Shown piece after piece: positions 21,975 through 44,195 of a stretch of DNA of 55,471 nucleotides. How positions within the stretch are numbered: the first letter of the stretch is position 1; every line of letters starts with the position of its first letter. This DNA is from a virus. Lineage: Duplodnaviria > Caudoviricetes. Position numbers and translations under genes: made by a program. The notes beneath the pieces are model-generated. The model was given only the letters and a program-made list of their open reading frames with translations. It made no database searches and was not told the DNA's origin. Location: positions 1-55,471 of the IMG/VR virus record IMGVR_UViG_3300044614_001468, one strand, 5' to 3'.

Positions 21975-22967
21975 TTAGGCTAAGTCTCTCATGCCGTTAG
22001 GATTATCTTTTGAATACTTGCCCCAGTTCTTTCCGACTTGGGCCTCCGATTTCATCGTGAAGTTTATTCCGTCTCGGCCTGTGAGAGAAATGGCGAGGCA
22101 TTCTTGCATGAGCTTCGCCGTGTCAGTGACAATCCCATCTGGAACCAGCGCCAGAAAAGAGTCATGTTTATTGTTAATAGCTGGGAGTGTATTCTTAGGC
22201 CGCTCAGTGTTATAGCGGTTGACCGCGATATGTGTGATGCATCCCACGGTGGACTGAGGAACCCATGAGATGCCTTCCCTGATATAAGAGTCAGTAATAG
22301 TTCTCTCGAACCTGCGTGGATATCCAAACAGATTCCGGAGCTGACGGTTAGTTCTAATTTGAAATTCAATTTCATCTTGCCATTCTATGATTTCGGGGAA
22401 TAGGGACGCGAAGAAGCCGAGGAATGTTTTACATTCTTGAAGAGATAAAGTCAAAGTACCGTGACTTTGCTTGAGAGTCTGAAGCTGGAAGGTCCGCTCA
22501 CGCATTCTATAGGAGGAAGCGTGGCAGACCATCTTGCCGATCTTGTATTCTTTATCTGAGGATTTGATTGCTTTGTCGAGAGGTTTCCAATCTTTGTCTT
22601 GCTTGAGTTCTGTTGGGCTGAGAGATTTCCAATAGCTTGGACTTTTACCGGCGAGAGGCCATTCGTTCTGCATCTGCTCGCAGAAGATGTGAAGCGCGAT
22701 GAAGGTATGAGGTTTGATGCCGACGTTGAAGAGTTCTCTATAACGGCCCGGTCGTGTAAGGTTGGCGACGATAAGAGCTTCGGCGCCGCTTTGGTCGCAT
22801 TGGACGAATGTGTGGTTTGGAGGAGCTATGTAAATATCGAGAGCTTCCTTGTCGGGATTCTGGAGATTCGCTCCGTAGTCGCCTAGGAATTGACCGCTTG
22901 CTAGGCGAAAGCTTCCTGTGCCAGCGACCTTAAGTGAGGTCAGGCAATGGATGTGTGGAGTGGGCAT
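21975..22967 (-). CDS. polA: DNA polymerase family A, C-terminal (palm/fingers) subunit
   Basis: AGTGSFRLAS, NLQNP, motif A DQSGAE, motif B KMVCHASSY, PQST, motif C KHDS. Confidence 0.9.
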   Translation of the reverse strand: MPTPHIHCLTSLKVAGTGSFRLASGQFLGDYGANLQNPDKEALDIYIAPPNHTFVQCDQSGAEALIVANLTRPGRYRELFNVGIKPHTFIALHIFCEQMQNEWPLAGKSPSYWKSLSPTELKQDKDWKPLDKAIKSSDKEYKIGKMVCHASSYRMRERTFQLQTLKQSHGTLTLSLQECKTFLGFFASLFPEIIEWQDEIEFQIRTNRQLRNLFGYPRRFERTITDSYIREGISWVPQSTVGCITHIAVNRYNTERPKNTLPAINNKHDSFLALVPDGIVTDTAKLMQECLAISLTGRDGINFTMKSEAQVGKNWGKYSKDNPNGMRDLA

Positions 22968-24374: not shown

Positions 24375-25805
24375 TTAATATTCCCAAATCCATTGTTGAA
24401 ATCCTAGCATACCTTTCAGCTTAACCATACGACGCATCTCGAAGATCACATCAATAGCGACGTTCTTAGGATGCTTGAGTTTGATCTTATAGAGAGCATC
24501 CCCAGCGACACTCGGAGCGCCTTTGTCTGTTGTCTTTTCTGGTTTGTATTTTAGTTGTTCGTGTAGATAACGAACGACTTGATCCGGGCTGCCGGGATTA
24601 AGGTCGAAGCCGACGAGGATTTTTAGGATTCTATTTAACTGCTTATATCTTTCTTCACAGCGTCGGACGATGTATTGCCGCTTGACGGGATCAAAGTGCA
24701 TTCCGTGCAGTGACATGAAGGCGTAGTCTGCGAGAGATCGGCTGGCTTGATCGACAGAGTCTTGAAGTCCAGCGTCGTTTCGGCAGACTTCAATCTGACC
24801 ATAGTAAATTTCTCTGAGGACAATAACGTCTTTAACATTGTAAGCGCGGAGCTGCTCAAATTGTGCTCGATTGCGAGGATCAAAGTTCCCTGCTTCATCT
24901 TTATGGAAGGGTCTGTTGCTGTAAAGAGTGGCTTGATGTGCCAGAGATTTCTCGGCCTCAGGGAATATGCGATGCCCAGCGACCATGGTGTCATAGATGT
25001 CATGGCCGAATGGGATCTTATAGAAGGCGGCGAGGAAGCATAGGTCAAAGAGGGCGTTATGTATGACGACTCTTCTTTTCTTTAGCTCTCTTATGAAGCG
25101 CGCAAAGAAAACCACACCCACATTAAGATTGCCGCCCCAATCGTACACAGGGATAGAGTAAACAGGACTCTCTCCACAGGCGATGGCGAGACACGTAAGG
25201 GTGTTCGTCTTGGGGTGAGTCTCAATGTCGAAGAATATAGGACCGTCGTAGTCGAAGACACTTGTGCATTCGGCTGCTCTTTGACAGATGACGGTTTGTG
25301 GTTCAGGTTGAACTTTTTGGGGGTCATATGTTAGGAGTTTCTTGATGTCTTGTGCGAACCAAAAGCTGTAGTTACTGCGCTTCGTTGGGGATGTACTCTT
25401 GCCGTCGTCTTTATCTAGAATGTCTTCGCCGTCATTGTCTCCCTCCAAAGCGTCTTCCATGCCCCATGCGTCGACACAATCTTGAGGCCAGTAAGTAACG
25501 ATGTATTGGGTTTTATTTGGCGAGAGATAGACGACGCCGCGAAAGGCGTCTAGGGTTTTTCCTTTAGCTGCTGGTAGATAATCTAGGGCTTTGGCTCCGG
25601 CAAAGATGATCTTTGTGATGCCGCTTGGTTTGTTTGCGCCTTTGAAGAAGTCGTCGGCGAAAGTAATGAAAACGTTAGATGCGTCATCAAGATCAATACC
25701 ATGACGTACCAAAGTATCACGCACGAAGTCACCAGCGGGTCCGAGTAAGATCCCATTATTTTCTTTATCAAAGCGCGAAGGTCCATGGAGAACGAGGGCT
25801 ATCAT
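24375..25805 (-). CDS. polA: DNA polymerase family A, N-terminal subunit: degenerate UDG-like + 3'-5' exonuclease + thumb
   Basis: GILLGPAG and TYWP UDG-family-4-like remnants; Exo I DIET, Exo II HNALFD, Exo III YNVKD; thumb GMHFD, NPGSPDQV, R..KL. Confidence 0.85.
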   Translation of the reverse strand: MIALVLHGPSRFDKENNGILLGPAGDFVRDTLVRHGIDLDDASNVFITFADDFFKGANKPSGITKIIFAGAKALDYLPAAKGKTLDAFRGVVYLSPNKTQYIVTYWPQDCVDAWGMEDALEGDNDGEDILDKDDGKSTSPTKRSNYSFWFAQDIKKLLTYDPQKVQPEPQTVICQRAAECTSVFDYDGPIFFDIETHPKTNTLTCLAIACGESPVYSIPVYDWGGNLNVGVVFFARFIRELKKRRVVIHNALFDLCFLAAFYKIPFGHDIYDTMVAGHRIFPEAEKSLAHQATLYSNRPFHKDEAGNFDPRNRAQFEQLRAYNVKDVIVLREIYYGQIEVCRNDAGLQDSVDQASRSLADYAFMSLHGMHFDPVKRQYIVRRCEERYKQLNRILKILVGFDLNPGSPDQVVRYLHEQLKYKPEKTTDKGAPSVAGDALYKIKLKHPKNVAIDVIFEMRRMVKLKGMLGFQQWIWEY

Positions 25806-31093: not shown

Positions 31094-31933
31094 TTATTCT
31101 CCTTTATCATACTCCGGCAATTCAATCTCTCCAAGTTCTCTCTTAAGTAATAGATTACGCAACGCACGGACATTCCCAAAGGAGAATGTCTCGTCGCCGA
31201 AGTGTTCGCGCTCGCCAATAGGTGTCCAGTTTTCTTCTTCGATTATCGCCGAGGCCACACATCGGATTTCCTGCACGCCTCGTTGTTGTAATGAGAGAGT
31301 CTTCAGACCGAGTTCGTTAATGCGGAAGTATAGATCCTCACGGAAGCTTCCCTCTTTAACCATCTTGAGGAGATCTCTATTTGTAGCGAACACAAACCTA
31401 CATTGAATTGGCACAGGATCAACAGCTCCGACGGGCAAGACTGTCTTATCCTGCAAGACTCTCAATAACTTAGCTTGATGCGACAGGGGCAATTCGCCTA
31501 TCTCATCGAGGAAAGCAGTACCCTTGCCGACTGCTCTTAGGAAACCAACGTCGCCTCTTGATTTAGCACCAGTAAAAGCGCCGGGCATGTAGCCAAATAG
31601 TTCTGATTGGAATAGTGTGTCTGTCAAACCAGCCATGTTCATAGCCTTGAGAGGCTTTCGTTTGTGGGCAAGGATCCTTGCGATCAACTCCTTGCCTGTG
31701 CCCGATGGGCCTTCGATCAGGACGTTGTATCTCTGCAAGCTTTCTTCCGCATATGTCATCGCGGAGTTGAGCATCTTCTTCGTGGCAGGATCTTGCGTGG
31801 CATAGGACGAAGCGACATTGTGGATACTGTTCTCCTTCAATGCGTCGCCTGTGATCTTGAGGACATCCTTGCGGATGTTATCAAGGAAGCTGTCGGCGGC
31901 TGTGGTATTGAGGACGTTTGCGTGGATGTTCAT
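31094..31933 (-). CDS. Sigma-54-dependent transcriptional activator (bEBP AAA+ domain only)
   Basis: GPSGTGKE, SELFG, GAFTGA, FLDEIGEL, QAKLLRVLQ, ATNRDL, FREDLYFRI, GNVRAL; no receiver domain and no C-terminal HTH. Confidence 0.95.
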   Translation of the reverse strand: MNIHANVLNTTAADSFLDNIRKDVLKITGDALKENSIHNVASSYATQDPATKKMLNSAMTYAEESLQRYNVLIEGPSGTGKELIARILAHKRKPLKAMNMAGLTDTLFQSELFGYMPGAFTGAKSRGDVGFLRAVGKGTAFLDEIGELPLSHQAKLLRVLQDKTVLPVGAVDPVPIQCRFVFATNRDLLKMVKEGSFREDLYFRINELGLKTLSLQQRGVQEIRCVASAIIEEENWTPIGEREHFGDETFSFGNVRALRNLLLKRELGEIELPEYDKGE

Positions 31934-34914: not shown

Positions 34915-35485
34915 AGTTTAGGATGTTTCTTGTGTCTACGATTTTTAGTACTTCTTCGAGAGGGAAATAGCAGTTGATGTTGTTGAATGCGCCTTTGAGG
35001 GCGTCGTTGAGCTGTCGAGATTTGTTAAGATAGATCTCTTCGCCTTGTGAAGTGATCGCGATGGCGACCTCTGTTGCCTTCTGTCTGTTGAAGAGCTTAG
35101 CTTTAGCGAGTGCATCACTGATCATCTCTACACGGAGATCTTCTGCTTTCTTCCGGATGTAGGATATGTCAGAGGCAAGGTGGTTTGCACGAAGGATTCT
35201 TCTGCGCTCGTCGCTGAGGTTCCAATCGGTGGCATCCCAGATGACAGAGTAAGAGAATCCGTCTTCGTTGATTCTCTGAATATGGAGATGCTCACTTGCG
35301 CAGTGAGCCTTAACCCAGTCGGCTGTTTCATTTGTAGCAACAATCGCATGGGCAAGATTATTCCCGCCAGTTCGGCGGATGAAATGCCCTCGCTCTGCAT
35401 CGACATGACAAGAGCACGATGGGAAGAGCAATCCCCAGAGTTCTTGTGGAGTGATTTCTTGGACGTCTTCATTTTGAGGAGGCAT
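34805..35485 (-). CDS. Hypothetical protein
   Basis: Start overlaps the end of rpoN. Confidence 0.6.
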   Translation of the reverse strand: MPPQNEDVQEITPQELWGLLFPSCSCHVDAERGHFIRRTGGNNLAHAIVATNETADWVKAHCASEHLHIQRINEDGFSYSVIWDATDWNLSDERRRILRANHLASDISYIRKKAEDLRVEMISDALAKAKLFNRQKATEVAIAITSQGEEIYLNKSRQLNDALKGAFNNINCYFPLEEVLKIVDTRNILNYEQSPATEDNQRIPAPEESNGQSHQEERLDTPTAGG

Positions 35486-36764
35486 AGACTTTACGGAGAT
35501 GTGATGGTTGAATACCTAGTTCTGCTCTGTATTTAGCGATTGTGCGCCGGGCGATTGTGTTCTTGAGGAGTGTTACAATGTCCTCATCGCTTAGTGGGCG
35601 AGACTTGTCTTCGCATGAGATGATCTCTGCGATTTGATTTTTTATTGAGAGGTTACTTTGCATGGTGTTTTGTTCATGGTTTACGATAGCACTGGTGAAG
35701 AAAAATCTTAGTTCATATGTACCGCGCGGAGTAGAGATGTATTTGTTACACACGGCTCTGCTCACGGTGGTCTCGTGGATCTCACAGACCGTCGCGATCT
35801 GAGCCATCGTGAGCGGCTTGAGATCTTTGATCTGGCCGCTGCGGAAGAAGTCTTGTTGATAGTCTACGATCGCATTAGACACGCGGCCGAGAGTAGACTG
35901 GCGCTGCATGATAGATCGAATGAGAAACTTTCCCATCTTTACTTTCTCACGCACGAACTCCCGCTCGGCGGGCTTGAGCTTGTGGAGATAGCTTAGAACG
36001 TGATCGTTGATCTTGTAGACAGGAAGTTTCTCGTTCGGGATATCTATTGTGCCGTCGTCGCGCAGAAAGATCTCTGCGTCTTTCGGCGTGTGCGTTGAAG
36101 ATGCGAACTCTGAAGCGGGATTATAGTTTAGTTTAGAGAGTTGCTTGTACAATAATTCGATCGTGGTAAAGGTCTCGTTGTATTTCTTCGCGAGAATGGG
36201 GATTTGGCGTCGAGTGAAGAGATCTTCGTCTTGTTGAAGGATTTGATAAGCTAATGAAGAAGAATTTAATTGAAGACATAAGCAATCTGCAAGACTCAAA
36301 GCGCCGAGGCCGCGTGGTTCGAGCGTGCGGATAAATCGCAGAGCTTTTCTCTGTTCTGTCGTGAGAATGTCTGGATCATGTAGGAAATATCCTCGCTCGT
36401 TAAGAAGAGATATGACAGAGAGATCATGACCGGCGAGAGATAATTCTTTCTCTAAGTATTCTTCTAGTGTCTCATCTCGGCCGGGATTATTCTCTAGCGG
36501 ATATTGCTCTTTGTATGATGGAACACTATCCGAGAGAGAAGTCCACTGCATATCCGCCGGGAGTTCAGCTTTGTCGTTCTCGTAGGATATGTCTTCTTCT
36601 GCTTGATTATTGTCAAGCATCTCGACGCATGGATTGTCGTTGATGAACGACTCCATGATAGATCGCAGGTCACAAAGTGGAGCTTGAAGAAGCGCGAGAG
36701 ACTGTTGCAGTTGTGGACTCAGTATCAAAGATTGAGTCTGCTGCGTGGAGATAGAAATTTTCAT
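35469..36764 (-). CDS. rpoN: RNA polymerase sigma-54 factor
   Basis: Region I QQTQSLILSPQLQQSLALLQAP, EPRGLGA.SL..CL.LQL, LKPLTM, HETTVSRA..NKY, ELRFFF, PLSDEDI, RpoN box ARRTIAKYR. Confidence 0.97.
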   Translation of the reverse strand: MKISISTQQTQSLILSPQLQQSLALLQAPLCDLRSIMESFINDNPCVEMLDNNQAEEDISYENDKAELPADMQWTSLSDSVPSYKEQYPLENNPGRDETLEEYLEKELSLAGHDLSVISLLNERGYFLHDPDILTTEQRKALRFIRTLEPRGLGALSLADCLCLQLNSSSLAYQILQQDEDLFTRRQIPILAKKYNETFTTIELLYKQLSKLNYNPASEFASSTHTPKDAEIFLRDDGTIDIPNEKLPVYKINDHVLSYLHKLKPAEREFVREKVKMGKFLIRSIMQRQSTLGRVSNAIVDYQQDFFRSGQIKDLKPLTMAQIATVCEIHETTVSRAVCNKYISTPRGTYELRFFFTSAIVNHEQNTMQSNLSIKNQIAEIISCEDKSRPLSDEDIVTLLKNTIARRTIAKYRAELGIQPSHLRKVYASSK

Positions 36765-36955: not shown

Positions 36956-37600
36956 TTAGACAGTTTTCTTCTTGGCTTCGCGCTTGGCCTTCGCGCTGGC
37001 GAGTTCGTTGGCCTTCGCGAGGAGCTGCGCCAGAGAGGCGATAAGGTTAGCCTGCTTGGCCACGGCGGCATCCTTGTCGGACACGCCCAAAGAGCGAGCA
37101 GTGTCGTCGTTCCACTCGCCAGCGAGAGCGAACACAATCGAGCCGATCTCAGAGCGAATGCCTTCGATCTTCTTGAGGACAGACTTTTCGGTCTCACGGT
37201 CGGCGCTGACGCCGTAGATGAAGGCGGCGAAGTAGTCGGGAGTGTTGCCCTTGCTGAGATAGGCTTCAGAAGCGTCTTCGGCGATGTCGAGGAGTTCAGC
37301 CTGTACGAGATCACTCAGAGCATTAGAGATGCGCTTCGTTTCAGTGACAGAGCCGTCTTCGTTCTTGACCTTGGTCACGTGCTCGGTCAGGATCTCAGCG
37401 AGAGCTTCGCCGCGCTTGATGTAGTACTGGAGATCGCTAACGGCCAGAATCGGAGACTGAAAAGAGACAACACGCTCCGGAGACTTAGCAGTCTTGCGGA
37501 CATGACGCTCGTTGGTGGCGAACTGAGGGTTGCCGTTGCTGTCGCTCTGGAAGACAGATCCAGCGAAGGAGGCAACGAGTTCGAGGTTCTTAGTGCTCAT
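36956..37600 (-). CDS. Hypothetical protein (214 aa), probably highly expressed
   Basis: C-ending codon bias like the capsid gene; own promoter and terminator; basic C-tail. Confidence 0.75.
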   Translation of the reverse strand: MSTKNLELVASFAGSVFQSDSNGNPQFATNERHVRKTAKSPERVVSFQSPILAVSDLQYYIKRGEALAEILTEHVTKVKNEDGSVTETKRISNALSDLVQAELLDIAEDASEAYLSKGNTPDYFAAFIYGVSADRETEKSVLKKIEGIRSEIGSIVFALAGEWNDDTARSLGVSDKDAAVAKQANLIASLAQLLAKANELASAKAKREAKKKTV

Positions 37601-37707
37601 TTTACTTGTGTTTCTTTTTGTTGGTTTGTTTTATTGGGATGTTTTCGGTTTTACGTTGAACCGCTAACATTATCGCACAGTCACCAACAGGACCGGCAAA
37701 TCGGATA

Positions 37708-37725
37708 AAGCTTTTGAAATGCCAA
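37708..37725 (-). promoter_or_regulatory. Putative sigma-54 promoter
   Basis: tTGGCAtttcaaaaGCtt directly after terminator 37741-37791; nearly identical to the terS site. Confidence 0.65.
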
Positions 37726-37740
37726 GTTATTTTTGACAAT

Positions 37741-37791
37741 AAAAAAGCTCCATAAAGAGAAGCCCTCCTTGAAGGGCTTTGCTTTGTGGAG
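37741..37791 (-). terminator. Terminator ending the early operon
   Basis: ctccataaag..aagccct/agggctt..ctttgtggag stem; A6 on + gives the U-tail on -. Confidence 0.7.
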
Positions 37792-37960
37792 AGTTAATTA
37801 CCGCCGAGAATCTGGCCTATCTCATAAGGCTCAAGGTGAAAGTCAAGACACATAATGTGAGTATGTTTGACGTGGTTTATGTAGTCGTGTATGTTGTTTG
37901 ATTTACATACAGGAACGAGACAATAGTGGAATGTATTGTCAAGAGAACGAATTATTACTA

Positions 37961-38239
37961 TCATCTTGGAGGTAGGTTTTTAATCTTGTTTAAAACTTCT
38001 GCAACTTCAAAGAAATCGAGAAAACCCATCACATCGTCTGTGATAGGAGTATCATACACAATGCGATCGTCATGCATTACAGCAATCTCAAACAGTCCAT
38101 CGTGTCCGCCTTTTGTCCAACGGCAATCACCATTTACTACCAACGTGCCTGCACCATTACCGCAAATGATTGAGGCTGTGTATCCGTTTTCGAACTTAAT
38201 CTTTTTTCCGTAGTTTATTACTTCTTTCATATTATGCAT
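37961..38239 (-). CDS. Early hypothetical protein
   Basis: FENGY.ASI...GLFEIAV...DDV.G.L. Confidence 0.7.
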   Translation of the reverse strand: MHNMKEVINYGKKIKFENGYTASIICGNGAGTLVVNGDCRWTKGGHDGLFEIAVMHDDRIVYDTPITDDVMGFLDFFEVAEVLNKIKNLPPR

Positions 38240-38492
38240 CTTTGATTGTTATGTTTGTTGTACCGGTTTGAAAAGCTTTTCCGTTCGTACCCTTTGCAGA
38301 GCGATGCGTCACACGCTTATGCACCTTAAACACGTCAGGATGCATAGGCTGAATCGCGCCGCCTGTCTTGTGGCCAAAGTTGAGAGCGCCTTTGTATTGC
38401 CATTGTGGCTGACAAGAGATGCAACGCGAGAAGCCGAGAGCTTTTCTATCGGCGTCAATAACTTGAAGACAACGTAAGCAACGATTTGTCAT
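38232..38492 (-). CDS. Early zinc-finger protein (CxxC...CxxC)
   Basis: CLRC...R..LG...CISC, DksA/TraR C4-like spacing. Confidence 0.6.
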   Translation of the reverse strand: MTNRCLRCLQVIDADRKALGFSRCISCQPQWQYKGALNFGHKTGGAIQPMHPDVFKVHKRVTHRSAKGTNGKAFQTGTTNITIKDA

Positions 38493-38623
38493 AAGCTTTC
38501 ATCTCGTCCAATATCCCATCCCGGACCATCATCAAGAGGCTCATCGTCATAGATGCTCAATTCGCGACGCAAGTCTTCGAGTGTGGGATTTTCTTCTATT
38601 TCTTCAACTGGTTCTTTCATAGA

Positions 38624-38938
38624 TTAAAAAGTTTTGTGACTCTCAATAAAGTTCTTAGCATTTAGAAGATTGCAAGGATAACCTGTTAGCTTGAGATGCA
38701 AGCCCATAAAGAATTTCATCATGCGAATCTTAACGGGTCCGAGTCTTTCATCTTTGTCAGATGGTTGCATAAGGTCAGACCATAGCTCTTGCACCATAAG
38801 GCTCGTGTAGGTCACGGCGTGAACCTCACGAATAGGCTCCATGTCGGAGATTGCAACTTCGACATCTTCATCAAGCCTTTGATAAAAGTAATGAGCTAAT
38901 AGTCTTTCGGCCTCTTGTTTGTTTACTGTTATTTTCAT
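38624..38938 (-). CDS. Early hypothetical protein
   Basis: ORF with A-rich leader. Confidence 0.6.
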   Translation of the reverse strand: MKITVNKQEAERLLAHYFYQRLDEDVEVAISDMEPIREVHAVTYTSLMVQELWSDLMQPSDKDERLGPVKIRMMKFFMGLHLKLTGYPCNLLNAKNFIESHKTF

Positions 38939-39051
38939 TTTATTTAGTTAGTACATTATTCCTTTGACAAAGTAATACAAAGTGACCAGTAAGATCACAG
39001 AACCTACAATCAAAACAATGAGTTCGTCTTTCTTGTGTTGTTTCATAAATA

Positions 39052-39276
39052 TCAAATCCAATCAATTTTACTTTTCTCAGTCGCTCTCACAATACGAGAG
39101 ACACTTGGTTTATGACAGAGCCAAGCCTTTGCCTTATGGACAGATTGCTTGTCTTTCTTAGCATTGCGCTTTGAAAGAGGCACAAGTTGCTTGTGCATTT
39201 TGGATTGCTTCGAGGCAAAGTATTTGCCTAGATTGACAGAGTTAAATCTGTCAAATTGTTTTTGCTTTCTGGTCAT
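39052..39276 (-). CDS. Early basic hypothetical protein
   Basis: Lys-rich 74-aa ORF. Confidence 0.5.
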   Translation of the reverse strand: MTRKQKQFDRFNSVNLGKYFASKQSKMHKQLVPLSKRNAKKDKQSVHKAKAWLCHKPSVSRIVRATEKSKIDWI

Positions 39277-39342
39277 AAAAAAGAGCTTTTAGTTATTCAC
39301 TAAAAGCTCGATCAAGGCACAACGCTTCGCGTTGTGTGTTGT

Positions 39343-39432
39343 TTATTCCTGCTCTGCTTCGAGTTCGAAGCGGCAGTCGATGCACAAGCAATCATTGGCT
39401 TGTGCTTTCTGGTCACAATATTTGCATTCCAT
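39343..39432 (-). CDS. 29-aa Cys-rich peptide MECKYCDQKAQANDCLCIDCRFELEAEQE
   Basis: Translated by eye; CxxC...CxxC. Confidence 0.55.
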   Translation of the reverse strand: MECKYCDQKAQANDCLCIDCRFELEAEQE

Positions 39433-40335
39433 AATAACCTAGACTTTGCATCTAGTCTTTACCTTGTAGTGTGTGGATAGTTTGAAGAAAGAGAAGGTTT
39501 GAATAAAACCATTTAGTGCGTGGATATTGCGTTGTGGATAATGCGCAACACTACAAAGCAAAGACTAAATGCAAAAGCCTTGCGAGTCACCTATTGTTTC
39601 CCTTGCAAAAGGCAAGGCAATAGCGCAAGGCTTTTGATTTAGTTTTTGAGGTTATTTAATTGGGCAAGCTACCAAAGATAACCTACAAAGAGTCTTTTGT
39701 TTAAGTGTTTCTGTCTTCTGACATCCGATGGACAGTTTCTTAAGCAATCGGAAAGCTAACACTTAGGGCCGTCGTTAGGCGTTGCACCTAACACGTTTTT
39801 CTTTTGGTTCCGGTCAAAGCCTAGCCAACCAAAAGAGTCCCAAAGACTTTGGGCTTTTGTTTTCGTTTCTTTGTCTACTTGTCCCGCATTTAATCGGTTC
39901 ACTCTTTCGAAGAGTCTAGACAAGCTTTCAAAGTCTACTAGCAAGAGCCTTTCCCATTCATCGCAGGGAACACACAAGGGTAAATCCCCTATGTTGTACG
40001 TTTCACGTCTCACGTTTCTTTGTTAAATGCGTTTGAGTTTTAAATCTTAACATTAAACAAAGAAAACCGGTTTTTTATTCCTACTTTAACAAAAGGGGAT
40101 TTAATGTCTGCATAGCTACTTTGTCCGATTCTTTAGTGTTTCTCTTAACACTTTAGCTTTTCCCGCTACTAGGTTAAATGCGTTTCTTCCGATTTACCTA
40201 GACTCTTAAGGCAATTTACACTTTGCCTTAATAGCTTCACGCTACTTCTAAAGAATTATTTCCGCTCCTTTTGATAGTATCAAAAAGGCACGCTATGCGT
40301 TTATTAAATCCGGTTTTTTGTATTATTCAAACCGG
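39433..40335 (-). ncRNA. Candidate large structured non-coding RNA
   Basis: Many nested complementary segments; mismatches in the longest helices resolve as G.U on the minus strand. Confidence 0.55.
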
Positions 40336-40337
40336 GC

Positions 40338-40856
40338 TTTGTGTGTGCTAGGTTCACTCTCCCGCTTTAACACGGGAGAGTGTGAAGTGTTACCGTCAAT
40401 TAGGCTTTTGTTGGCGTCTGGGAAGCTCCCTGAGAGGCTTTGAGAGCCGGGAGGGTGCTATCCCCGGTCTCAACTTCACAAGCTCTCAGGAGAGCATTTA
40501 AACGCATTCCAAGAGCATTGGAGATCCCGCTCAAGGCTTCCCATCGAGCAGTCTCGTTTTCAAGAATGCTCTTGTGCGTTCCCTTGGCAAAAGAACCTTT
40601 GACGATAGGACCGATTGCAGAGCCTTTGCTCATACCAACAGCCTTGGCGGTATCTTTGAGGCTCTCAGCCTTTCCGATCTCTCTAACGAAATCGGCGGGA
40701 TGGATTGCACACAAAGAAACGAGATCCTTGACAAAAGGAATGACAGTTTGATTGACGGTATTGTTGTTTTTGTTTTGCATTTTAGTATTAGGTTTTAGTT
40801 TTAGTTTTTAACTTCACACTTTGTTTTATTCAAAGAGTGAACCTAACACACACAAA
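40338..40856. repeat. Long-range inverted repeats flanking the 126-aa ORF
   Basis: 40338-40360 vs 40834-40856 (22/23) and 40379-40388 vs 40811-40820 (10/10). Confidence 0.9.
40400..40780 (-). CDS. First early protein (126 aa), unknown function
   Basis: ATG with A-rich leader; only sizeable plausible ORF in the region. Confidence 0.7.
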   Translation of the reverse strand: MQNKNNNTVNQTVIPFVKDLVSLCAIHPADFVREIGKAESLKDTAKAVGMSKGSAIGPIVKGSFAKGTHKSILENETARWEALSGISNALGMRLNALLRACEVETGDSTLPALKASQGASQTPTKA

Positions 40857-41236
40857 TAAATATGTTTTGTCCCTTTGGCTCAAAGGAGAGCCAACAAAAG
40901 GGATTCTATAAAACCGCCACAAAGCAAAGCCTTGCGCGAGAAAACCCACGCAAAGCCTTTAATGCGATTCCGGAAAAGAACAAAAACTGACAATCTGCAA
41001 AGTCTTCTATACGCCAAAAACCGTCAAGCCTTTTCAAAAAACGTAACGCAAACGTAACTTAACAGTAGCCTAACCTTAACTTGACAAGCTATTTTAGGTA
41101 ACAAAAAACGCTATTTTAAGTAAAAAACGGGTATTCTAGGGAAAACCACAAAAGACGCAACAAAAAACGAAAACTATTAGAAAAACTAATCTAACCTCAA
41201 AAACACTAAAGGCTTTCTAATGCCCTACAAGCCAAC

Positions 41237-41277
41237 AAAACACTTGTAAATCTCAAAAAACACTTGTAAATCTCAAA
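41237..41277. repeat. 20-bp tandem duplication (aaaacacttgtaaatctcaa)
   Basis: Two exact adjacent copies. Confidence 0.9.
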
Positions 41278-41332
41278 TAAAACAAGCTTTTTCTTTAGGT
41301 AATTGGATTAGTTAAAAGTTAGGAAAGGTAGG

Positions 41333-41559
41333 AAATACGCTTATTGGGGTCTGGTCAATTTGGGCTTATAGTTAAATTAGGTCTAATACAATATTATGTT
41401 TTATTATAATACTTTAATATGCTATTTATAATATTTTATTACCTTAGTTCTAATTTATTATTATAAATACAATATTAGACTCTTAAGACTCCCATTTATA
41501 CGATATTCAAGTTAAAACAAACACAAGCGCAATTTCGGTATTTATCAATAAGCGTATTT
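41333..41559. repeat. 14-bp perfect inverted repeat enclosing an extremely AT-rich core
   Basis: aaatacgcttattg (41333-41346) / caataagcgtattt (41546-41559); inner gtctaata/tattagac. Confidence 0.8.
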
Positions 41560-41622
41560 TCTTGTTTATAAATAGCCTTTAACACTCTCAAAACACAACA
41601 AAACGCTATTTACAAAGAGCTT

Positions 41623-41757
41623 CAATGCATAGAACTGCTATGCATCACAGCGCAATCCCTTGCACTTCTATCCCTAAGACTTCTATCCCTAAGACTCCAA
41701 TGCATCACTCTACTATGCATCTCTCTGCTATGCATCACAGTCCAATGCATCCCCGAC
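41623..41757 (+). repeat. Array of nine 15-bp imperfect repeats (C[AT]ATGCATC.. / C[AT]ATCCCT..)
   Basis: Exact 15-nt period, units aligned by eye. Confidence 0.9.
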
Positions 41758-41856
41758 AAGCCGGTGTACGGAAAGACCCGAAAAATTGTGCCTTTGTTCG
41801 AACACGTCTCCTCACAGATTTTATAGATTTTTTAGCCCTTTTTTGCATATTCTTTT

Positions 41857-41874
41857 ATGGCATTCTAAAAGCTT
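41857..41874 (+). promoter_or_regulatory. Putative sigma-54 late promoter of the terminase operon
   Basis: aTGGCAttctaaaaGCtt; the -12 C lies 15 nt before the terS ATG. Confidence 0.65.
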
Positions 41875-41886
41875 TGATCGTTTTAT

Positions 41887-42429
41887 ATGAGTGACTTAAT
41901 GATGAGAAATCAGATATTAGGACTAAGGCGCGCAGGGATGAGTTGTGAAGAGATATCTGCCGCGCTTGAGGTTGACCCTGTAGTGGTAAAGTTGGCCTTA
42001 GAAGCGACAGGTGGGTCTGTAGCCTTAAGAAAAGAAGCCCTCAAAGAGGAAGACATAACCGACGATGTCTCTGAACAAGAGGCCAAAGAGATGATGGGCA
42101 TCATCAAGAACATAGCCCGTGACGAAGACTCTGGCGTCTATGCCCGACTAAACGCGGCTAAGTATGCCCATGGCGCCAAGCGCGGTTATCACAAACGCCA
42201 TCTCGATCTTAACGTGGGCTCGGGCGAATTGCTTCTCAAGATCAACGAAGCCTACGCCTCAGCATCTATGCGCGCCCGCGCGGCTCTTAGCGGCCAATCT
42301 CTCACCGCTAAAGAAATCACCATCGAGGCCCCAATAACCGTAGAGGCGCCCTTAGCCGCAGAACTCCCTTCTGATCACACTACTCAATCAGAGCCTGCGG
42401 CGCCGAAACCCCGGCCCTTTAAGATATGA
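41887..42429 (+). CDS. terS: Putative terminase small subunit
   Basis: N-terminal HTH (GMSCEEISAAL), RLNAAKY; overlaps the terL start. Confidence 0.6.
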   Translation: MSDLMMRNQILGLRRAGMSCEEISAALEVDPVVVKLALEATGGSVALRKEALKEEDITDDVSEQEAKEMMGIIKNIARDEDSGVYARLNAAKYAHGAKRGYHKRHLDLNVGSGELLLKINEAYASASMRARAALSGQSLTAKEITIEAPITVEAPLAAELPSDHTTQSEPAAPKPRPFKI

Positions 42430-44195
42430 CAAAGACTCCAATCTCCGCTGATACACTCAAACTTGTTCAAGCCCGTCGCGCACTTGAGGCAGAGAAAGCT
42501 GCAGAAAAAGAACGTGCAAAAGCAGCCAAAAAGAAAGCTGTAGAAGTTCCGCCTAAAGCGCCTGACGCTGTCGTAGTAGAGCCGCCTGCAAAAAACAAAC
42601 GCTACATTGCGCATCAGATCGACACCCCGGCGGATTTACTCCTCGCCCATCGACCTGATCTGAAGCTCTATAAATGGCAAGCAGAAACTCTATTTCAACT
42701 TGCAGGATATACCGACATCAATGATCTCGATCTGCCTAAAACTCGACCAACCGACAAGACGCCGTTATACTACAATCTTGTCGCGGCCAACGGAAGCGGA
42801 AAAGATCAGGTCGTTATTAGCTCCTTCGCTGTCTGGTTTTGCCTTTCCAAAGTCCGTTCTCGATGCGTCATTACGTCATCTTCGTACGAGCAGCTTAAGG
42901 ATCAGACGTATAAGTACATAAAGAACATCTGTGAAGAGATCAATGTCTCGTATGGCCGTAAGGTATTTGAGATCGTTGAGTTCTTGATTACCTGTAATGA
43001 CACCGGCAGCGAGATCAAATGCTTCGTGACAGATGACCCCGGCAAAGCCGAAGGGCGTCACCCGTTCGACGAACCCGGCGCCGAGATGGCCGTGATCATT
43101 AATGAAGCTAAATCTATCACCGATGAAATGTTCCAAGCCTTCTCACGCTTTACAGGTTATAACTACTGGCTTGAAATCTCTTCGCCCGGCAAGAATAGCG
43201 GCCATTTTTTCAAGCGTTGTACGCGTGCAAAGCGCACATTCCCAGATCCTCTCGAAATAGGCGAATTCTACTGGCGTCGTGTCACGGCATTCGACTGCCC
43301 TCATCTTCTTGGCAAACACATCGAGCATCTTAAGGACGAACACGGTGAACAATCCCTCATCTATCGAAGTCAAGTATTGGCTGAGTTTACCTCACTCGAC
43401 GAAGCCGCATTTATACCTTCAACACTATTCGAAAACTACCCAGCAAATCCACCGCGTACATTTGGATTGCCCAATCGAGCGGGCATCGACTTATCACTCG
43501 GCGGCGATGAAACTGTGGCGTACTTCTTTATCCATGGAAAACTCCACCTACGAACAACAAAGATTCGTAACGAGGCAATTCTCCACAATCAGATCATCAG
43601 TTGGATTAAAGAATTTAACGTCACGCCCTCTGAGGTACGCATTGACGATGGCGGTCTGGGACGACCTATCGTGCAGCGAGTGCAAAATGCAGGTTATGAC
43701 GTCGTGCCGATACGAAACGAAGCCCGATCAACCAACCCAAATTTCTACAAAAACAGAGGCGTTGAAAACTGGAATCGTATTAAGCGTGCTCTTGAAGACC
43801 GTGCGTTTCCTGCACTTAATGACGACCTTACTCGCCAACAGTTATGTACGCGTGGCTTCTCTGTTAAAGGGATCGTCACGCTCTTAGAGCCTAAAGCAGA
43901 AATGCGCTCGCGTGGTTTGTCGTCGCCTGATCGCGCAGACGCTCTTGCGCTTTGTTTTGACAGTGTTCCTCTTGGAGCTTTCAAAGAAGAAACATTACAC
44001 ACAACTGAACCAGAAAGTCGTTTCTTAGAACTCATAGATCTTAACAAAAAAGGCCTCTTAACGCAGAACGAAGCTCAAGAACTCACACTTCTTTGGGGTC
44101 AGATGACACACAGACCGGCACAGGAAACGCTAAATTCGCCTGAGCCGCGTGAAGAATTACGTGGTCAATATCATCAATTCGTAACCGCTAAATAA
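42426..44195 (+). CDS. terL: Terminase large subunit
   Basis: AANGSGKD Walker A, IINEAK Walker B, ISSP, GIDLSLGGD, IDDGGLG, SPDRADAL. Confidence 0.9.
   Translation: MTKTPISADTLKLVQARRALEAEKAAEKERAKAAKKKAVEVPPKAPDAVVVEPPAKNKRYIAHQIDTPADLLLAHRPDLKLYKWQAETLFQLAGYTDINDLDLPKTRPTDKTPLYYNLVAANGSGKDQVVISSFAVWFCLSKVRSRCVITSSSYEQLKDQTYKYIKNICEEINVSYGRKVFEIVEFLITCNDTGSEIKCFVTDDPGKAEGRHPFDEPGAEMAVIINEAKSITDEMFQAFSRFTGYNYWLEISSPGKNSGHFFKRCTRAKRTFPDPLEIGEFYWRRVTAFDCPHLLGKHIEHLKDEHGEQSLIYRSQVLAEFTSLDEAAFIPSTLFENYPANPPRTFGLPNRAGIDLSLGGDETVAYFFIHGKLHLRTTKIRNEAILHNQIISWIKEFNVTPSEVRIDDGGLGRPIVQRVQNAGYDVVPIRNEARSTNPNFYKNRGVENWNRIKRALEDRAFPALNDDLTRQQLCTRGFSVKGIVTLLEPKAEMRSRGLSSPDRADALALCFDSVPLGAFKEETLHTTEPESRFLELIDLNKKGLLTQNEAQELTLLWGQMTHRPAQETLNSPEPREELRGQYHQFVTAK

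Follow-up and report, generated by a model that had tools for sequence, protein, structure and literature searches.

The window analysed here, on which all positions below are counted, is a complete virus record of 55,471 bp. Its plus strand carries the structural genes, including that of the large terminase (42426-44195), and its minus strand carries, from ~40780 down to 20181, a block of replication and regulation genes, among them those for a DNA helicase, a family-A DNA polymerase, a primase, an exonuclease and a ligase. The polymerase is apparently split, into the ORFs 24375-25805 and 21975-22967. The two diverging blocks are separated by a stretch of ~3 kb (~38940-41890) that is nearly free of long ORFs, the main exception being a minus-strand ORF for a protein of 126 aa (40400-40780). 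The DNA sequencing runs that contain this sequence are lake-water metagenomes. A blastn search of the segment 39800-41400 against 50,697 phage records returned zero matches, and a tRNA scan found none. The closest terminases from cultured phages are those of Akkermansia phages, which at ~30% identity are too distant for naming a host.

The phage also encodes, on the minus strand, a full-length sigma-54 factor of 431 aa (35469-36764), with the activator-interacting (E = 2e-11), core-binding (4.5e-18) and DNA-binding (5e-50) domains, and a sigma-54 activator protein of the AAA+ type (31094-31933, minus strand; 279 aa, E = 8e-50). The canonical -24/-12 promoter pattern of sigma-54 is not enriched across the window (25 matches vs 30.8 expected). 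In a tblastn search of the phage records all matches to the phage sigma-54 were below 35% identity, with no close homologue from a cultured phage, and most of them look like bacterial fragments misfiled as phage.

The 126-aa ORF is enclosed by two arms of an inverted repeat, 40338-40360 and 40834-40856, each 23 nt long and lying 473 nt apart, which are complementary at 22 Watson-Crick positions and carry one mismatch that is C/A on the plus strand and G.U on the minus strand, i.e. the coding strand. In the sense of the minus strand, to which all the elements described here belong, the arm 40834-40856 lies in the 5'UTR, 54-76 nt before the ATG, and its partner 40338-40360, which holds the G of the sole G.U wobble, lies in the 3'UTR, 40 nt past the stop codon; their helix is termed P1. 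Nested within it is a second pair, P3, a perfect 10-mer in the window, formed by 40811-40820 (ACTTCACACT) on the 5' side and 40379-40388 (AGTGTGAAGT) on the 3' side. Between the two helices stand a 5' junction hairpin, P2 (40821-40833, ttg-ttttatt-caa), whose stem of 3-5 bp is weak in the window, and a 3' junction hairpin, P4 (40359-40378), which includes cccg-ctttaaca-cggg at 40361-40376. The arms, the 10-bp pair, both hairpins and the enclosed ORF had been pointed out in an initial annotation of this DNA; all of them are found in the sequence, as is the restriction of the G.U mismatch to the coding strand. An 18-nt arm pattern searched with up to three mismatches has two matches in the 55-kb window, both at the arms, for 0.01 expected, and none of 100 shuffles reached two matches; a chance origin of the arm pair is excluded. 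No other long-range inverted repeat that reaches 20 nt and exceeds 90% complementarity, with its arms no more than 2.5 kb apart, was found across the window.

The minimum-energy fold of the 536-nt sense RNA contains P1, P3 and P4, with z = -9.8, compared to z = -6.8 for the antisense of the same RNA. Between P3 and the ATG lies an A-rich translation-initiation leader (40781-40810), and these ~30 nt together with the AUG are unpaired in both the minimum-energy and the centroid fold; the portion of the leader that was included in the flank cofolds of relatives is unpaired as well. No Shine-Dalgarno motif was found ahead of the 126-aa ORF. Nor was the motif recognized ahead of any of the 39 phage ORFs that were inspected, the leaders of which are mostly A-rich. 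The folds are further suggestive of a third long-range helix, candidate P5, in which 40751-40760 (nt +21 to +30 of the ORF, codons 7-10) would pair with 40391-40400, comprising the last base of the stop codon and the 9 nt that follow it. Helices resembling P5, with differing sequences, recur in relatives, in a comparison made without a shuffle control and with the start codon of one locus (L034) mis-assigned.

The product of the enclosed ORF is a helical protein from a narrow, phage-restricted family. Homologues in metagenomes number 129 at E<=0.01, the 120 listed being 70-90% identical, and the family is regarded as narrow because just three clusters at 50% identity turned up when 1.84 billion representatives were searched with a profile. 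Neither Pfam nor PHROGs gave a significant match for this ORF or for four neighbouring small ORFs, and a PDB profile search with 101 sequences had a best E of 0.5. An AlphaFold2 model based on 101 sequences comprises five helices (pLDDT 77.5, pTM 0.71); with 21 sequences the model was poor (pLDDT 56). Searched against the PDB with Foldseek, the model had a best E of 4, and in a wide structure search with VIA-align a best Z of 5.1, which is under the meaningful level for helical models. A language-model search of the ESM Atlas produced only sub-threshold leads, to XRE and CII helix-turn-helix regulators (0.89, below 0.9). Judged by its position only, the ORF would be the first early gene of the phage.

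Relatives of the locus were fetched from viral contigs (the window and two others) and from metagenomes (26 loci), giving 29 loci with 24 distinct flank pairs. A flanking inverted repeat of 22-26 nt is found in the same place in 29 of 30 sequence sets, and in the sole set that lacks it (L035) the contig ends 80 nt into the gene. The relatives have ~10 different arm sequences: the outer half of the arm is rewritten between subfamilies with the complementarity of the arms kept, and in one locus (L011) the arms differ by a single clean exchange of A-U for G-C. In IMG/VR viral contigs the arm pattern was found only in the same context, apart from one chance match in a coding region (L008). A conserved downstream motif matched only the same four viral contigs, and no relative without the cassette or with other cargo was found. 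The initial annotation had raised the possibility that related phages keep the arms with different cargo ORFs, which is not what the relatives present: the same ORF family lies between the arms in every one of them. For a distant homologue of the protein (P0121, ~42% identical), no loci were found in viral or genome contigs.

Cofolding of the 5' and 3' flanks in their 24 distinct versions gave P1, P3 and P4 in all 24 and P2 in 23, the exception being the window itself. The structure prediction that had been advised in the initial annotation has in this way confirmed, at the level of computed folds, that the two flanks form a shared four-way junction across 24 distinct relatives. P1 is 22 bp long in 17 of these sequences, 23 bp in four, 24 bp in two and 20 bp in one, and has no bulge in any. 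P3 measures 6-11 bp in all 24 and 10 bp in 13 of them; its sequence varies by subfamily, with AGTGTGAAGT vs TGAGTGTTTT or TGGGTGTTTT types. The two junction hairpins are more variable. P2 is a 5-bp hairpin in the type to which the window belongs and a compound hairpin of 25-45 nt in the other subfamilies, its stem sequences also varying by subfamily, and P4 occurs with at least seven different stem sequences. The P2 loop of the window (7 nt, 40824-40830) is, with one mismatch, the reverse complement of the loop found in the closest relatives, and variant loops at this position are present also in contigs of two other lake runs; from the sequences, the change looks like a hairpin-loop inversion, a mutational event at the DNA level.

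Covariation was counted in an alignment of 25 distinct rows with 30 well-aligned pairs (22 of P1, four of P3 and four of P4). Paired cells make up 98.8% of the total, vs 85.3% in shuffles, and the covariation score is 0.398 vs 0.144. Changes on both sides were observed in 15 of the 30 pairs and in 97 cells, a number that far exceeds that of independent events, as the subfamilies are few. None of 500 shuffles matched the observed values for pairing, both-side changes or covariation, and sliding the partner by 1-3 columns lowered pairing to 32-54%. Both-side changes affect 11 of the 22 columns of P1 and three of the four tested pairs of P4, for which 100% of cells are paired. The most invariant parts of the junction are the inner 13 bp of P1 and a core, CACTC(T) or its complement, which is present on all four junction strands; the spacing of the core copies within one flank ranges from ~13 to ~45 bp across the relatives.

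The junction is surrounded by further conserved structure on the same strand. Just upstream of P1 lies a co-varying leader hairpin, P0 (40871-40902), followed by the conserved motif GAC(C)AAGYCAT; several of its pairs (alignment columns 492-495/523-526 and 502-508/515-521) change on both sides. Upstream of P0 is a long co-varying leader hairpin (40905-40985) with sense G.U pairs that are invariant, GU at columns 424/485 and UG at columns 434/475, each in 12 of 12 sequences. Because these leader hairpins co-vary and include invariant sense G.U pairs, the alignment suggests a transcript start that precedes the 5' arm of P1. On the other side, 2-3 nt past the 3' arm, there is a conserved hairpin (40310-40335) with a weak U-tract, a possible terminator or 3'-end hairpin. 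In the sense of the minus strand, the cassette is immediately followed by a non-coding, hairpin-rich stretch of ~900-1000 nt (~39440-40335), kept in 9 of 9 aligned relatives. An ORF of 85 aa with a GTG start that lies inside this stretch (39756-40013) is not coding-like.

Several features of the junction bear on the strand and on the kind of nucleic acid in which it acts. The cells within P1 that depart from Watson-Crick pairing, 16 at four columns, are all wobbles of the G.U kind on the sense strand, with zero A.C or C.A; over the whole junction, G.U accounts for 52 of 1100 pairs in the sense fold and for 14 of 1015 in the antisense fold, and in each of the 24 sequences the sense strand gives the more stable fold. 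The orientation relative to the conserved flanks is identical in all 29 loci. No strand-change joint was found in the contigs of four lake-water DNA runs, which can miss rare variants, and two contigs span both arms, in the reference orientation. As the G.U pairs are confined to the sense strand, the junction hairpins vary in size, which fits a folded strand and is unfit for sites of proteins on duplex DNA, the leader hairpins co-vary and the orientation is fixed, comparison of the sequences points to a junction that acts as RNA of the coding strand rather than as a DNA switch. Single-stranded DNA of the sense strand would, however, tolerate a G.T wobble equally, and the co-evolution of inverted-repeat arms could be maintained at the DNA level as well. 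The initial annotation had favoured an RNA-level function and had considered DNA inversion less likely, and both judgements are borne out, the former by arms that are conserved as pairing and not as sequence, with wobbles only of the sense-strand G.U kind, and the latter by the single orientation of the 29 loci and the lack of a strand-change joint in the contigs of the four runs.

Group I and group II introns and HEARO elements likewise carry ORFs in helix-closed loops of a folded RNA, and the initial annotation had considered an intron or HEARO-like family. A search of 37500-42500 on both strands with the covariance models of Rfam 15 gave zero matches at E<=1, and the ORF belongs to no known family; membership in these groups is not supported. 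The locus has no ribozyme core, reverse transcriptase, homing endonuclease or TnpB-like protein.

We infer that the two arms are the 5'UTR and the 3'UTR of one mRNA, co-transcribed with the message for the 126-aa early phage protein. The junction of this mRNA would consist of P1, with its ~22 bp or two helical turns, the hairpins P2 and P4, P3 with ~10 bp and probably P5. Each flank taken alone folds as an extended local hairpin in which the outer ~15-20 nt of the arm remain free, as was found in 9 of 9 sequences, a selection from the 24 meant to cover the subfamilies. The flanks can form such hairpins because the four junction strands share the CACTC/GAGTG core, and the junction is 20-30 kcal/mol more stable than the two local hairpins. 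From the free outer arms and this gain in energy we infer an ordered folding path: local hairpins would form on each flank during transcription, the free outer arms would zip together once the 3'UTR has been synthesized, and a short branch migration would complete the junction.

Nearly all bacteria have RNase III, an enzyme that needs some two helical turns of RNA duplex (~20 bp or more) with no interruption and leaves 2-nt 3' overhangs at its paired cuts. P1 is an uninterrupted duplex of this length in 24 of 24 sequences. We propose that P1 is a processing site for a double-strand-specific nuclease of the RNase III type, the cutting of which would separate the message from the structured leader upstream and from the ~1-kb non-coding RNA downstream. 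The cut mRNA would keep its two ends base-paired and might thereby be shielded from end-dependent nucleases. We argue for an RNase III-type enzyme because the duplex is perfect, of a fixed length of two turns, closed round a whole gene and placed beside structured RNA. A point against this reading is the near-invariance of the inner 13 bp of P1, which is not needed for pairing and hints at a sequence-specific protein that reads the duplex, rather than at RNase III by itself. Since the start region is single-stranded and placed in the loop, the predicted structure would not block translation and is no lock on initiation like those of hok and icaR (see below). Taken as a whole, the reading of the duplex between 5'UTR and 3'UTR as an RNase III-type processing and end-protecting structure is the one that we prefer, and we put the chance that it is correct at about one half.

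Long-range duplexes of a comparable kind are the processing stems by which the 16S and 23S rRNAs are looped out of their precursors. Between the early genes of phage T7 there are RNase III sites, local hairpins the cleavage of which yields stable single-gene mRNAs with structured ends; the locus described here would resemble T7 in the proposed processing of an early phage transcript and differs from it in having a long-range stem round the gene. For mRNAs of B. subtilis, cleavage by RNase III has been reported within duplexes formed by distant parts of the same molecule; these measure 10-36 bp, and the cuts lie as much as 505 nt apart (PMC11780869). As in the sites described in that report, distant segments of one RNA would pair here and enclose hundreds of nucleotides (22 bp and 473 nt in the phage); unlike the sites as they are described there, the phage duplex belongs to a conserved four-way junction with a core shared by four strands and encloses exactly one complete ORF, and its cleavage is putative. 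In the icaR mRNA of S. aureus, pairing between the 5'UTR and the 3'UTR is described as yielding an RNase III substrate and as covering the Shine-Dalgarno region, by which initiation is blocked (PMC3868564). Unlike in icaR as it is presented in that work, the start region of the phage message is unpaired in the predicted folds and the pairing is perfect and far longer; a 3'UTR motif would have no Shine-Dalgarno sequence to pair with, and the 5' arm is located 54-76 nt before the AUG. The full-length hok mRNA of plasmid R1 is closed by a long-distance stem between its 5' and 3' ends (tac/fbi), its folding order being governed by local structures and a later rearrangement (PMC9841398). According to the same source, the ribosome-binding site is hidden in the closed form, which remains inert before trimming of the 3' end; the product of the mRNA is a small toxin, and there is an antisense partner. 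The phage mRNA is likewise predicted to be closed by long-range 5'-3' pairing, but, in contrast to hok as characterized there, its leader and AUG are unpaired, so that the ribosome-binding region is not sequestered, and the locus shows no toxin, antisense partner or inert closed form.

Other explanations of the junction have to be weighed against RNase III-type processing. The ORF might lie in the loop of a larger structured phage RNA, in which P1 would be an architectural helix of an RNA or ribonucleoprotein, possibly bound by the 126-aa protein, and would not be cleaved. The co-varying hairpins directly upstream and the conserved, hairpin-rich stretch of ~900-1000 nt directly downstream, retained by 9 of 9 relatives, would then be parts of the same molecule, the invariance of the four CACTC/GAGTG cores and of the 13 bp of P1 next to the junction would be that of a protein-binding platform, and it would be understandable that the protein family is found only with this structure. 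However, in an unsystematic search the leader and the downstream stretch showed no long-range pairing with each other, and a conserved hairpin and a sigma-70-like promoter match, situated between the cassette and the downstream stretch, suggest separate transcription units. A helix with a purely architectural role would seldom be a perfect duplex of 22 bp, and there is no match to an Rfam family; we regard a larger RNA of this kind as rather unlikely, with perhaps one chance in five. A second possibility is that the nested helices, by bringing the stop codon beside the start region, form a closed-loop device for re-initiation of translation without a Shine-Dalgarno sequence. P3 and candidate P5 do bracket the unpaired start, with the stop codon a few nucleotides away in the fold, and the lack of Shine-Dalgarno motifs upstream of the 39 inspected ORFs is in line with such a device. 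It depends on P5, however, for which the comparison had no shuffle control, it leaves the perfect 22-bp P1 and the retention of the junction hairpins unexplained, and we know of no bacterial precedent; we consider it improbable.

Two further explanations place the function in DNA. The invariant cores of the flanks could be operators that bind a phage regulator, perhaps the product of the ORF itself, with the DNA looped around the gene. Such an arrangement would account for the four copies of CACTC(T) and the invariant 13-bp inner arm, and the weak language-model leads to XRE and CII helix-turn-helix regulators (0.89, below 0.9) would agree with it. Operators have no need of outer arms and hairpin stems that co-vary, though, or of wobbles confined to one strand; moreover, a spacing of the cores that ranges from ~13 to ~45 bp in one flank is incompatible with a rigid dimer site, and Pfam gives no helix-turn-helix match, which leaves the operator hypothesis slightly less probable still than re-initiation. 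Perfect inverted repeats of 22-26 bp around a single gene, with copies that co-evolve, would finally suit a DNA cassette that inverts, or a small mobile element bounded by terminal inverted repeats. Yet the 29 loci, which come from many samples, have one orientation, the contigs of the four runs include no strand-change joint and two that bridge the arms in the reference orientation, and the arm pattern occurs in viral contigs only in the same context, barring the chance match already mentioned. No recombinase or transposase was recognized among those 35 of the window's ORFs that were scanned with Pfam and/or PHROGs, although a host enzyme could act in trans; no target-site duplication or flanking direct repeat is visible, and P2-P4 would have no explanation. 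We deem a DNA cassette very improbable. A MITE or IS-like element, also considered, was rejected, as there is one arm pair in the window, no other insertion context in IMG/VR and no visible target-site duplication.

The junction would extend a known kind of structure, namely long-range 5'-3' pairing in mRNA, by its conserved four-way form with a common core, a perfect stem fixed at 22 bp and an open start region. Few bacterial mRNAs are known in which the 5' end pairs with the 3' end of the same molecule (hok, icaR), and long-range RNase III sites have been mapped only recently, in one model bacterium. A literature search aimed at general precedents, in which a junction around a phage ORF was not itself the query, returned only cases of long-range mRNA pairing or processing. 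The present junction adds a phylogenetically supported example from uncultured phages, with a perfect two-turn duplex, a four-strand core and an open start, and provides a testable model for the folding order of a long-range helix, for the excision or protection of a first message and for the reader of a duplex of fixed length. A more far-reaching and distinctly doubtful idea is that the leader, the junction, the ~1-kb downstream RNA and the 126-aa protein make up one RNA-protein machine, a new class of large structured phage RNA, in which the CACTC/GAGTG cores would serve as a strand-exchange switch that ties processing or activation, as infection begins, to the completion of transcription. 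If this were true, the machine would act in a phage that brings its own sigma-54 and activator. The locus in any case marks a group of phages with ~3 kb of conserved structured non-coding sequence and a sigma-54 system of their own.

The remainder of the ORF-poor stretch contains several other features. Next to the downstream non-coding RNA, the window has an insertion of ~160 nt (39277-39440) with several terminator-like hairpins, which is missing from all eight aligned relatives, and beyond it a minus-strand ORF for a small basic protein of 74 aa (39052-39276), which is conserved in 8 of 8 aligned relatives and changes in a coding-like pattern. No convincing promoter for the 126-aa ORF could be recognized from the sequence. 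Upstream of the leader hairpins, in the sense of the minus strand, 3-4 direct repeats of a GTTACG-type unit at 11-nt spacing (~41035-41090) are conserved in 12 of 12 relatives and flanked by an invariant CTTGTCAAG palindrome and an invariant TTGAC; by its sequence this is likely a regulatory or promoter region of the leftward genes. Farther upstream, tandem repeats in a 15-nt phase built around ATGCAT (41620-41750) adjoin AT-rich nested palindromes (41394-41603), which are bordered by a 17-nt inverted repeat (41330-41346 and 41546-41562), and both are candidate origin or regulatory sequences.
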